A stretch of 25,328 bases of DNA from Thermoplasmata archaeon (GCA_021160765.1 JAGHBW010000223.1:1-25328); one strand, 5' to 3'. Positions 12,578-25,328 are shown, counted from the stretch's first letter. Numbers and translations: made by a program. The notes: generated from the letters alone by a model not told the origin.

Positions 12578-15304
12578 ATGAATCAACTGGGTGTCAGAGA
12601 GCGCACTAACATAAACCATGTTGTCATTCTCCTCACACTGGCACCTCTTCTTTTATGGGGATCTACCTCCCCCATTGTAATTAATGGATCTGCCACTAAT
12701 ACGAGAGGATTCACTCTCTCTTTTGAGATGGATTCAGAGGGGGTTAATGGAAAAACCTGTTTCGCCATGTATCGCACCTACAACCTCACTGTAAATGTAC
12801 ACGGCATCCCCCCCGGGGAGGTGGAAGCTGTCAATCTAACCCTAGCCCCCTATTCTTACAACATTCACCTTCACTGGAATAGAAGTATGGGGGATTGGAA
12901 GGACAATTCCTCCGATGAGGGGGGATACATAGAATATCTCGGGTGTGAGGTTATTGAAAGCGTGCCTCTCTCACTCTTCAAACTAACCTTTTACGTTCTA
13001 TTTACATGGAACTGGAGTGCTACCGATTACAAAAGCGTTCTGATCAATGTATCTACAGTGGAGGGAGGGGATTCCTTAGAGGTCTCCAATGCATTCAGGG
13101 TGAAAGGGACACTTTTCCTCTCAGGCAGTCTAGAGATCAAGGGTGAGAGGGAAGAAACAGTGTACATTGGAGACTGGGTAAGTGGTAATTATACCCTCCA
13201 CATTGGCGGACTTCGCCTGCGGTATGAGGATCCGATCCTTTATGTCCCCTCACCAGAATACTATAAATTCGTTCTCAACTGTAGTGCGGGAGAATTGTCT
13301 ATTTATGAGCCGCCCCCCGACGGCATGTTGAACATCTCGACTACAACCCCTATTGTGACAGGGCAGAACGTCACTTATACCATATCCATCACAGGCCTTG
13401 CAGCACCCCATCTCAGAAGCCCCTACACTTTCACCTTAAATATTGACTCGACTCCACCAAATCCTGTCAGAAACCTCAGAATGCATCCTGACTGCGCTAC
13501 TGATCCCCCTTCTCTGTTTGATAATGACCTTCAGGTTTATCTTACTTGGGATAGTGGTGGAGACATTGGAAGCGGGATCTCCCAGTATCTTTTAGGGATA
13601 GGGGACGGTCCGCTTAACATATCAGCACATAACAGAATGAGAGTAAACCTACCAAGGGCGGGAAAAATCAACCTTACCATCGCAGCAGTTGACCGCGTCG
13701 GAAATATCGGTCCTGGAACCACTATCAACATCACAGTGGACAACATAGAGCCCAAAGCGACGATCCTTGAACCACTGGAGGGGGTCTGGTACAATACGAC
13801 CTACATAAGGTGCGTGGTTCACTTTGAAGATCTAGGCGGTTCGGGGCTGGATGAAGATTCCATACGATACGCCCTTACGAAAGGTGAGGGGGCTCCTACC
13901 TGGAGGTCCCCCATGGGTGCTTCCTTTGAGAATGGAACTCTTATACAGTATATAACAAACCTTACAGACGGATCTGATAATTTCATAATGTGGCAGATTT
14001 CTGATAACGTTGGAAACGTTCTTCAAACATCTCCACTGGCCATATATGTGGACACAACCCCCCCAAGATTTCTTAACCCTCTGCCGTCTCAGGAACAGAT
14101 AATGCACAATACCTCTGTGAGGTTTATGATAGACGTTGAGGATGACGTAAGAGGTTCTGGATTGAACTTCACAACCCTTGAATATCGGTACAGCACAGAT
14201 GGCCTCACCAATTTTACATCCTGGATAGTTGTTGACAACATCACGGCGCAGGACGACTATCATGCCACCTTGACAGTTTTGCTCCATCTAAGAAGTTCCT
14301 ATAATAATTTCGTACAGTTCAGAGTTAAGGATCTTGCGGGGAACGTTTTGGTCTCCGACGCCTATCAGATAAAGGTAAACACACCTCCTGTAATTGTAGT
14401 TAATGGTAGGAGTGTTGTGGGTGAAGGACCCTCGTTTGAGGTAAAGGAAACAGATAGTCTAACAATAGATGCGTCGGAAACCTATGACCCCGATGGGGAC
14501 CATCTAACTTTTAGATGGAGATCCGATGTGGAGGGACCATACTCGGAAACCTCCCCCATACTTACCCTTCATTCTCTTCCCGAAGGATGCTTTAACATCA
14601 CCCTTGAGGTGGATGACGGCTACGGGAATGTTGTAAGGGTAACGTTTCCTGTGAAGGTTCTTCCCGTTAACGAAACCTCCACAGCCTCAGGAATTCTGGA
14701 AATGCTCTCTAAGTACCTTTCGCCCCCCTTCCTTTACTATATCATCATCGCTGTAGTGTCTTTGATCGTTATTATTACCGTTGTTAGTGCTAAGAGAAGC
14801 AAGAAAGAGGAAGAAGAGGTGGCAGTGGAAGAGAAAGGAGAAGAAGTTCAGGAAATGGAAGAGGTCTCATTTGATCTAGAAGAGGGCGGGGAAGAAGAGG
14901 TGATGATGGAAGTTGAAGGTGGTGGGGAGGAGGTGTTCACCCCCACATTTCCGTTTGGTGCAGCTTACCAGATGGGTGGGTTTGCCCAAACTGGCTACGC
15001 TCAGAATAATTATAGAACAACAACCTCTTCGGCTACTGATCTCTCCGATGAATTTGATTTTGATTATGACCTATACGACGTCCTAGGGGTCTCGCCAGAT
15101 GCGTCAGAAGGAGAGATAAAAAGAGCGTATAGAATCCTTGCCGCCAAATATCATCCCGATAGAGCAGCAGCCTTGGGCATAGAACCTGATGAAGCCAAGG
15201 AGATGATGATTAGGATAAACAAGGCGAAAGAGATCCTGCTGAACCCGGAAAAGAGATCGCTTTACGATGATTACAGGGAGAGTAGCTTCACAGTAGAGGA
15301 CTGA
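12578..15304 (+). CDS. Single-pass membrane protein: extracellular Ig/FN3-like and PKD domains, TM helix, acidic linker, cytoplasmic C-terminal DnaJ (J) domain
   Basis: N-terminal hydrophobic signal; repeats D.TPP...D.GSG(I/L)...(A/S/K)D.VGN/LAGN; PKD IDASETYDPDGDHLTFRW; TM FLYYIIIAVVSLIVIITVVSA followed by KRSKK; J domain YDLYDVLGVSPDASEGEIKRAYRILAAKYHPDR...MIRINKAKEILLNPEKRSLYD with intact HPD (15152-15160). Confidence 0.88.
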   Translation: MNQLGVRERTNINHVVILLTLAPLLLWGSTSPIVINGSATNTRGFTLSFEMDSEGVNGKTCFAMYRTYNLTVNVHGIPPGEVEAVNLTLAPYSYNIHLHWNRSMGDWKDNSSDEGGYIEYLGCEVIESVPLSLFKLTFYVLFTWNWSATDYKSVLINVSTVEGGDSLEVSNAFRVKGTLFLSGSLEIKGEREETVYIGDWVSGNYTLHIGGLRLRYEDPILYVPSPEYYKFVLNCSAGELSIYEPPPDGMLNISTTTPIVTGQNVTYTISITGLAAPHLRSPYTFTLNIDSTPPNPVRNLRMHPDCATDPPSLFDNDLQVYLTWDSGGDIGSGISQYLLGIGDGPLNISAHNRMRVNLPRAGKINLTIAAVDRVGNIGPGTTINITVDNIEPKATILEPLEGVWYNTTYIRCVVHFEDLGGSGLDEDSIRYALTKGEGAPTWRSPMGASFENGTLIQYITNLTDGSDNFIMWQISDNVGNVLQTSPLAIYVDTTPPRFLNPLPSQEQIMHNTSVRFMIDVEDDVRGSGLNFTTLEYRYSTDGLTNFTSWIVVDNITAQDDYHATLTVLLHLRSSYNNFVQFRVKDLAGNVLVSDAYQIKVNTPPVIVVNGRSVVGEGPSFEVKETDSLTIDASETYDPDGDHLTFRWRSDVEGPYSETSPILTLHSLPEGCFNITLEVDDGYGNVVRVTFPVKVLPVNETSTASGILEMLSKYLSPPFLYYIIIAVVSLIVIITVVSAKRSKKEEEEVAVEEKGEEVQEMEEVSFDLEEGGEEEVMMEVEGGGEEVFTPTFPFGAAYQMGGFAQTGYAQNNYRTTTSSATDLSDEFDFDYDLYDVLGVSPDASEGEIKRAYRILAAKYHPDRAAALGIEPDEAKEMMIRINKAKEILLNPEKRSLYDDYRESSFTVED

Positions 15305-25328: not shown

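Follow-up and report, generated by a model that had tools for sequence, protein, structure and literature searches.

Three coding regions on one strand

We analyzed a 25,328-nt stretch of DNA from Thermoplasmata archaeon (GCA_021160765.1 JAGHBW010000223.1), hereafter called the window, with coordinates counted from its first letter. The region of interest lies on the plus strand between position 12578 and the window end, and it encodes a membrane protein with a J domain followed by two giant proteins with pilin-like N-termini, which we refer to as copy 1 and copy 2. With translation table 11, the plus-strand open reading frames (ORFs) of this region are 12578-15304 (908 amino acids, aa), 15384-19868 (1494 aa), 19953-20435 (160 aa) and one that is open-ended from position 20453. 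ORFs 15384-19868 and 19953-20435 share a frame that is open except for a single TGA at 19866-19868. We describe them as one gene, copy 1 (15384-20435), which comprises 1683 codons when read through and is 65% identical to its relative P0007 (1968 aa). Copy 2 begins with the ATG at 20459, which is preceded by GGAGGGTG and lies 23 nt downstream of copy 1, and continues to 25327. It is truncated by the window end at 1623 aa, and its relative P0008 (78% identity) is 2390 aa long. All three coding regions show clear homologues and therefore represent real genes. The first-pass annotation of this DNA described three consecutive plus-strand genes separated by gaps of 79 and 23 nt. The coordinates bear this out (12578-15304, 15384-20435 and 20459 to the window end), except that the middle gene is interrupted by the TGA.

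Both giants begin with a predicted pilin module

Each giant starts with a short polar leader, then G-V-S-E, then a hydrophobic helix of approximately 24 residues (aa 13-36). With a slash marking the putative cleavage site, copy 1 reads '...VWG/VSEAMGTILLL...' and copy 2 reads '...REG/VSETMGTVLMV...'; both share the family motif [GA]-V-S-E-x-x-G-T-[IV]-L-L. Across 11 N-termini, V10 is invariant, and S11, E12 and G15 are nearly so. The Pilin_N module of copy 2 (aa 8-84; 20480-20710) matches PF07790 with 38.6 bits, above the cut-off of 25.2. The corresponding Pilin_N-like module of copy 1 (aa 9-82; 15408-15629) scores 23.5 bits and aligns column for column with the N-termini of the family.

From an 11-row alignment, AlphaFold2 predicts that residues 1-190 of copy 2 form a helix (residues 3-36) followed by a beta-sandwich, with a mean predicted local distance difference test score (pLDDT) of 78.7. 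The top PDB match for this model in Foldseek was 8fj5_A, a type IV pilin of Haloferax volcanii (E 5.8e-6; template modeling scores 0.47/0.62). Further fold matches, 8fk7_A and 8gi2 among them, included FlaF, pilins of Pyrobaculum and Natrinema, and archaellins, and four matches had E <= 0.001. Profile, motif and predicted fold agree in assigning putative class III (pilin) signals to both giants, as the first-pass annotation had proposed.

Modular architecture of copy 2

Behind the pilin module, the family conserves CARDB-type immunoglobulin (Ig)-like domains, two alpha/beta domains that start 'P-x-I-L-L-V-D-D-D', and C-terminal InhA-like MAM jelly-rolls. The first alpha/beta 'LLVDDD' domain of copy 2 spans aa 497-797 (21947-22849) and is conserved across the family. 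It is followed by a CARDB Ig-like domain at aa 817-912 (22907-23194; PF07705, 56 bits), after which the second alpha/beta copy is found. A vWA domain occupies aa 1414-1532 (24698-25054) and matches both PF13519 (VWA_2, 39.6 bits) and PF00092 (VWA, 30.9 bits). It contains the DxSxS sequence DTSGS at aa 1420-1424 (24716-24730), and candidates for the remaining residues of a metal ion-dependent adhesion site, chosen by eye, are a downstream Thr and the Asp of 'VFTDG'. Judging from P0008, the part of copy 2 beyond the window end would hold the remainder of the vWA domain, one MAM-like domain, an FN3-like stretch and two more MAM-like domains; P0008 has no C-terminal transmembrane (TM) helix. Neither giant gave a Pfam match at E <= 0.01 to DUF2341 or to the PilY1 C-terminal domain.

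The model of the 'LLVDDD' domain is poor (pLDDT 55). Comparison with the PDB gave no fold match at E <= 1e-3 and no sequence match by profile search. The only fold rows, all weak, were flavodoxin/DJ-1/ThuA-like (E 0.03-0.07). Beyond these, a ThuA profile matched at 24.7 bits, under its cut-off, in one of the related loci described below (L003), and no other hint emerged.

The giants form a tandem pair within a Thermoplasmatota family

Our protein searches were word-indexed and scored the 8000 candidates sharing most words with the query. When read-through copy 1 was the query, 47 clusters were found at E <= 0.001, two of them being the window's own products. Most members are 1,800-2,500 aa long and come from metagenome-assembled genomes of Thermoplasmatota/Thermoplasmata. 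Pfam Pilin_N (PF07790) was detected in 36 of the 47 matches and a vWA domain in 26. Databases already contain the family under names of its own, and those used by NCBI include 'type IV pilin', 'VWA domain-containing protein' and 'CARDB domain-containing protein'. Full-text literature searches, which cover subscription journals thinly, found no paper describing a giant archaeal pilin family.

A scan of genome contigs yielded at least 12 related giant-pilin loci, and all neighborhood counts given here rest on the 12 that were listed. Three of these (L006, L008 and L010) contain family members in tandem. Three more pairs of matches come from contigs of equal size (44,231, 17,773 and 18,089 bp), which suggests that these pairs are also co-located. 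We built a FastTree phylogeny from 32 rows, of which 12 represent the window and the loci and 20 were taken from the 47 family matches (27 matches and loci L002, L003b, L004, L009, L011 and L012 were omitted). Copy 1 together with P0007 was sister to copy 2 together with P0008 (support 93). By this branching order, the two giants of the window probably arose by tandem duplication in their own lineage of the Thermoplasmatota family.

Copy 1 is interrupted and lacks the vWA module

The TGA in copy 1 is codon 1495 (19866-19868) and falls on a Trp position that is invariant in the family. The aligned P0007 residue is the Trp of 'ADQWYLAED', and this residue (W2168 of alignment A1) is the same across 26 sequences. 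The 188 codons after the TGA (19869-20432) continue in the same frame and encode a MAM-like jelly-roll domain (PF20773 InhA-like_MAM, 27.4 bits; cut-off 26.9), for which a PDB sequence search gave no matches. This segment is 80% identical to P0007, compared to 65% and 70% for the stretches before the TGA. The length of about 1700 aa first given for copy 1 is thus valid as a read-through length (1683 codons), whereas table 11 splits the gene at codon 1495 into 1494 aa and the 188-codon continuation.

Copy 1 has also lost a domain. Its residues 1-1333 align to P0007 1-1330 and its residues 1334-1683 to P0007 1619-1968, so that approximately 288 aa are missing at the junction between aa 1333 and 1334 (19380-19385). 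The 288 absent residues correspond exactly to the vWA module of P0007. At the junction, P0007 reads '...EPPPP-LDVVICMDTSSSMS...' and later '...SRGGTRAP...', and copy 1 reads '...EPPPP-E-GGTRAP...'. No vWA domain was found in copy 1 by Pfam or by alignment to P0007; among the two giants, the domain is confirmed for copy 2 only, the module having been deleted from copy 1. A hydropathy scan detected no C-terminal TM segment in copy 1, consistent with the earlier statement that this protein lacks a C-terminal anchor.

Aligned against P0007, copy 1 is probably a degenerating or truncated paralogue, with the vWA module cleanly removed and TGG changed to TGA at an invariant Trp. The premature TGA and the loss of the vWA domain of the closest relative contradict the initial description of this protein as an intact adhesin. 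Because the 188 codons after the TGA remain open and are 80% identical to P0007, the TGA must have arisen very recently, reflect a variant or an error of assembly, or be tolerated. It is possible, though we lean the other way, that copy 1 is intact in the cell and that the 1683-aa protein is made; the TGA at 19866 would then stem from a faulty assembly or consensus, belong to a minority variant, or be read through. The open frame beyond the TGA favors this view, as does the fact that the post-TGA stretch is the part best conserved against P0007, and a single base separates TGA from the TGG codon for the Trp that P0007 carries at the same position. However, TGA is an ordinary stop in this DNA. 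It closes copy 1 precisely at the last residue of P0007, closes the J-domain gene at the end of its relative P0002, and also terminates three further window ORFs; for these reasons we excluded a genome-wide reassignment of TGA to Trp. Moreover, tRNA and Rfam family searches of the whole window found nothing, and so the window holds no tRNA or known recoding RNA, and a clean vWA deletion in the same gene fits relaxed constraint. Selenocysteine at this codon is also unlikely, since the aligned residue is Trp rather than Cys and no RNA family was found.

Pilus machinery in the window and in related loci

None of the window ORFs encodes a pilus assembly ATPase, a TadC-like/platform protein or a prepilin peptidase, as had been noted in the first pass. 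A different arrangement is found at L003, which lies on a complete Thermoplasmata chromosome. There, the giant is followed by an 1844-aa DUF7289/LamG/DUF2341 protein, a 344-aa DUF7289 protein, a T2SSE ATPase and a T2SSF protein. The ATPase scores 419.9 bits with the FlaI model, below the cut-off of 550, and the T2SSF protein matches ArlJ/UpsF models, likewise below cut-offs. BasE/BasF models were also among the profile rows in this comparison. Five of the listed loci have at least 3 kb of downstream sequence, and the ATPase/TadC pair is present in one of them (L003) and absent from L001, L006, L008 and L010. A DUF7289 protein is likewise encoded downstream of the L001 giant; L006, L008 and L010 lack such genes.

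The DUF7289 proteins beside the giants (L003:17790-24399 and L001:5886-6740) have class III-like starts, 'RRAVSNIV...' and 'RQGVTNVV...', and the 1844-aa protein in L003 carries four LamG domains and DUF2341. DUF7289 may be another archaeal pilin-type N-terminal module.

One survey states that archaeal pilin genes frequently lie apart from those for the ATPase and TadC, and that the large DUF2341 proteins of archaeal type IV pilus loci have been proposed as tip adhesins (PMC4858521). A report on Cuniculiplasma places pilin genes approximately 500 kb from the machinery and describes pili with distal hooks (PMC12448462). Because archaeal pilins are often encoded in trans (PMC4858521, PMC12448462), machinery that is missing from the window constitutes weak evidence either way.

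Several other genes beside the related giants are of interest. The L003 giant (L003:9926-17581) consists of a Pilin_N start (9926-10354) and a 2405-aa body (10364-17581) in the same frame, with an in-frame TAG between them. The family domain runs across this TAG, which could reflect a pseudogene, an error, or TAG read-through/pyrrolysine-type decoding. We rejected the 5' segment as a separate small pilin upstream of the L003 giant, because it shares the giant's frame and the TAG alone stands between them. We likewise rejected as pilins the products of small ORFs that precede the giants in L007 and L008, since these are coiled-coil or Cys-rich and lack pilin N-termini. A conserved seven-gene run lies upstream of the giants on the opposite strand in these two loci (L008:1846-4763; L007:5805-8684, minus strand), and its seven small proteins are coiled-coil, TM-anchored and Cys-rich with no Pfam match. 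A gene encoding fused Peptidase_M14 and Peptidase_C11 (clostripain-type) domains directly follows the giant in L010 (12714-15854) and L004 (3258-5165), and its product may be a processing enzyme for the giants.

Filament adhesins or coat proteins

We consider it somewhat probable that the giants are tandem-duplicated, modular type IV pilin-like adhesins, that copy 1 is degenerating, and that the J-domain gene is a separate neighbor. According to this proposal, the giant precursor would be inserted into the membrane, and a prepilin peptidase whose gene lies elsewhere would remove its leader. By means of the helix, a type IV ATPase and platform, also encoded elsewhere, would then seat the giant as a rare or terminal filament subunit, or as a short stalk on the surface, where its vWA and jelly-roll domains would bind ligands and the giant would serve as an adhesin. 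We infer cleavage, filament incorporation and adhesion, and for the J protein the recruitment of Hsp70, from what was computed, namely sequence, domains, fold prediction, distribution and neighborhoods. The first-pass annotation saw in this region an adhesive-filament tip or minor-pilin module with its own chaperone adaptor. The Pilin_N module, the predicted pilin fold, the vWA domain of copy 2 and the machinery link in L003 are in keeping with the first part of that idea; the chaperone-adaptor component is not supported, as described below.

Several observations weigh against the adhesive-filament proposal. Classical class III cleavage sites carry K/R before the cleavage Gly, and at the putative sites of the giants this position is occupied by W (copy 1) or E (copy 2). 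The Pilin_N score of copy 1 narrowly misses the cut-off. A motif scan of all six frames of the window for a small major pilin returned only the two giants, and neither giant is enriched in N-x-S/T sequons (15 against 11.4 expected, and 13 against 13.3). The alpha/beta 'LLVDDD' domains lack a fold assignment. The window itself contains no machinery genes, and the ATPase/TadC pair adjoins the giant in only one of the five loci with sufficient downstream sequence. In addition, a C-terminal TM helix followed by a basic tail occurs in 17 of 46 inspected family proteins, which favors a cell-bound protein over the tip of a long filament. We also know of no pilin of this size that has been shown in a filament.

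These last points lead to the main rival, which we regard as unlikely, if worth serious weight: that the giants are not filament subunits at all and instead are cell-bound envelope or coat proteins. Thermoplasmatota lack an ordered S-layer, and the giants would form part of an unordered glycoprotein layer, with the pilin-like helix acting as a membrane anchor or as a bindosome-like stalk. Sugar-binding proteins with class III signals form such a surface bindosome in Sulfolobus. We retain this coat or short-stalk explanation as the principal alternative because those family members that have a C-terminal anchor as well as the N-terminal helix would remain attached to the cell. The four of five loci without an adjoining ATPase/TadC pair point the same way, as does a surface-protein neighborhood that includes a choice-of-anchor T protein (6649-7593) and a PKD/CARDB protein with a C-terminal TM helix (7855-10821). 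Nevertheless, the N-terminal module of the giants has a full predicted pilin fold, which is more than a helix, and in L003 a family member is clustered with genes for an ATPase, a platform protein and further pilin-like proteins. Moreover, the C-terminal anchor is missing throughout the window's own clade (copies 1 and 2, P0007 and P0008), and the giants are not sequon-enriched, unlike the neighboring surface glycoprotein-type proteins.

Comparison with known modular pilins and surface systems

The closest described concept for the giants, by analogy, is the bacterial modular pilin exemplified by PilB. In Streptococcus sanguinis, PilB consists of a vWA domain grafted onto a pilin module, is modeled at the pilus tip and was shown to be an adhesin (PMC8179133). 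The same paper includes a survey that identified more than 1,200 modular pilins, with 860 residues in the extreme case (PMC8179133). As described there, PilB (pilin plus vWA) and PilC (pilin plus lectin) resemble the giants in that an N-terminal pilin module bears grafted vWA, lectin-like or jelly-roll modules. The S. sanguinis proteins have been proposed to sit at the tip and to function as adhesins; the giants would follow the same plan. The giants differ from the bacterial proteins in having an archaeal Pilin_N module rather than the IPR012902 type, in their length (1,700-2,500 aa with about ten domains), and in occurring as tandem paralogues.

Archaeal pilins such as PilA of H. volcanii (8fj5) and PilA of Natrinema (8gi2) share with the giants Pilin_N and, as far as the model of copy 2 indicates, an N-terminal helix with a beta-sandwich. 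However, these PilA proteins have approximately 130-150 residues and form the filament body. The giants carry more than 1,500 residues beyond the pilin module and cannot plausibly pack along a filament. Methanococcus-type DUF2341 proteins and Pseudomonas PilY1 are further examples of very large putative adhesins of type IV pilus loci (PMC4858521), and L003 encodes a DUF2341 protein after its giant. The giants have neither of those domains; they carry their own pilin module and would need no docking on minor pilins. Sulfolobus bindosome substrates are also large globular proteins with pilin-type signals, displayed by a type IV-like ATPase and platform. By comparison, the giants have no detected solute-binding fold, belong to a different phylum and have no assembly system linked in the window.

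If the giants are displayed by type IV filaments, then archaea would join bacteria in having modular pilins, and these would be about three times larger than any noted so far. Uncultured Thermoplasmatota, in which adhesion is to our knowledge essentially unstudied, would also gain specific candidate adhesins that bear vWA and jelly-roll modules. For annotation, copy 1 should be recorded as interrupted and vWA-less, and the three genes should not be treated as one system.

A J-domain fusion to a surface glycoprotein-type ectodomain

The gene upstream of the giants (12578-15304) encodes a 908-aa protein with the layout of a type I membrane protein, which is shared by its relatives P0002 and P0003. 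A hydropathy scan identifies an N-terminal hydrophobic segment at aa 15-35 (12620-12682), presumed to be a signal peptide. The ectodomain (aa 36-712; 12683-14713) consists of repeated Ig-like modules and one PKD-like module, with weak PKD and Big_13 matches in Pfam. A TM helix follows at aa 713-741 (14714-14800; hydropathy 2.95), then K/R residues and an E-rich linker. This linker is acidic and then Gly/Tyr/Gln-rich ahead of the J domain, which lies at the C-terminal end (aa 831-897; 15068-15268), contains the HPD motif ('AAKYHPDR') and matches PF00226 with 68.8 bits (cut-off 27.8). The ectodomain contains 23 N-x-S/T sequons, compared to 7.4 ± 2.6 in shuffled sequences, and the tail contains none. 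This distribution fits an outside-in topology in which the J domain is cytoplasmic.

Two J-fusion relatives were found among the candidates scored, P0002 (57% identity, 916 aa) and the partial P0003 (59%). Against P0002, identity is 84% in the J domain and 57% in the ectodomain, which argues that the fusion is under selection. The ectodomain alone belongs to a large family, with 2180 representatives at E <= 1e-3, of which 161 reach E <= 1e-30. A J domain is present in one of the best 150 of these 2180 relatives (P0003), and in 2 of the 200 proteins of the full set compared. Relative P0005, for example, terminates in a TM helix and a short basic tail. Because only one of the best 150 relatives has a J domain, the ectodomain family must work without it.

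We rejected DnaJ, DjlA, TopJ and CbpA as identities for this protein, because all matches are confined to the J domain and are far under the NCBIfam cut-offs (DnaJ_bact 68.2 bits against 377, TopJ 61.8 against 300, DjlA 34.3 against 162, CbpA-type 31.3 against 403). An ESM Atlas look-up with the J protein gave no usable match, and a full-text literature search with the same thin coverage of subscription journals found no archaeal membrane-anchored J protein. Escherichia coli DjlA and Mycoplasma TopJ resemble the window protein in having an HPD J domain tethered at the membrane, and TopJ is tied to adhesin placement. In contrast, the window protein has a large sequon-rich ectodomain, a single TM helix and a J domain at the extreme C-terminus. 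By its domain composition, the fusion is a rare variant of membrane-tethered J proteins. We propose that it would be a membrane glycoprotein of a widespread archaeal surface family in which a cytoplasmic J domain was gained in this lineage only, and that this domain may recruit Hsp70 (DnaK) to the membrane. It would thus be a rare archaeal surface protein with a predicted cytoplasmic Hsp70-recruiting tail.

The J-domain gene as a neighbor of the giants

The 79-nt spacer between the J-domain gene and copy 1 (15305-15383) contains TATA-like repeats, a T6 run and GGGGGT before the ATG of copy 1. The repeats are two tandem copies of CTGATATTTAT at 15301-15322, the first of which starts inside the J stop codon, and the T6 run is at 15332-15337. 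A TATA-like TATAAAAT box is found approximately 30 nt upstream of the J start. By general archaeal rules, the J gene probably has its own promoter and terminator, and the same rules suggest a ribosome-binding signal in the spacer. The spacer also holds two copies of TATCTCCCCC, 30 nt apart (15320-15359).

A six-frame phmmer scan of the 12 listed related loci detected no J domain and no J-type ectodomain. Among the five listed loci with at least 1.2 kb of upstream sequence (L003, L006, L007, L008 and L011), none has a J domain or a J-type ectodomain beside the giants. Contig sizes provide a more indirect comparison. Among the 8000 candidates scored, none of the giant fragments came from a contig as long as the one that carries P0002 (8,959 bp), and none of the J relatives came from contigs of the sizes that carry P0007 (142,665 bp) or P0008 (25,671 bp). 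When shorter fragments were sought, one match was obtained, P0201, on a 12,283-bp contig.

These results bear on the chaperone-adaptor component of the first-pass annotation, which had made the J-domain gene part of the same module and had looked to co-occurrence of the J-TM protein with giant pilins. In that scheme, the J membrane protein is a dedicated adaptor that recruits Hsp70 to the membrane and keeps pilin precursors of 180-260 kDa export-competent, so that the three genes form one module. We find this improbable. It is true that the J gene lies on the same strand as the giants at a distance of only 79 nt, that its J domain would lie on the cytoplasmic side and is conserved better than the rest of the protein, hence under selection, and that very large secreted substrates could plausibly need holdase help. 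In addition, the J fusion and this giant-pilin subclade have both been seen so far in close relatives only. However, the proteins do not co-occur in any frame of the 12 listed loci, including the five with upstream sequence, nor do the indirect contig-size comparisons reveal shared contigs. J-bearing relatives are rare, at one of the best 150 by ectodomain, and the gene is preceded by its own TATA-like box and followed after its stop by a T6 run and TATA-like repeats. The neighborhood comparisons thus leave the chaperone-adaptor idea unsupported by conservation, and a three-gene system is not supported.

A narrower version would have the J glycoprotein as a lineage-specific, membrane-tethered Hsp70 recruiter that evolved beside the giant pair, holding class III precursors of about 200 kDa unfolded and delivering them to the translocon or pilus platform. 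We consider this version very improbable. If true, the J glycoprotein would be a dedicated co-chaperone for a type IV filament substrate, for which we know of no described counterpart in archaea or bacteria. A milder idea in the same vein would be that type IV filaments of archaea can bear tip subunits of 250 kDa in which many domains are joined directly to a pilin module.

Other genes of the window

The remainder of the window is mainly housekeeping and encodes an eIF-2B family protein, an HD-domain protein, PheT, LonB, a tRNA-splicing endonuclease and a PRC-barrel protein. It also contains the two additional surface-protein genes mentioned above. The product of 6649-7593 (314 aa) is hydrophobic at both ends and matches the NCBIfam 'choice-of-anchor T family protein' model with 284.6 bits (cut-off 70); a Pfam search of this protein returned no matches. 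The 988-aa surface protein encoded at 7855-10821 has a CarboxypepD_reg domain, three PKD domains, a CARDB domain and a C-terminal TM helix, and it is sequon-rich like the J-protein ectodomain (23 against 7.2 ± 2.3 expected). Together with the three-gene region, these two genes make the window a surface-protein neighborhood. Finally, a gene for a DUF835-like membrane protein (1916-2662; 31.4 bits, cut-off 33.1) overlaps by 45 nt the 5' end of the divergent HD-domain gene on the opposite strand (674-1960), and one of the two start codons was probably mis-set by the mechanical ORF call.

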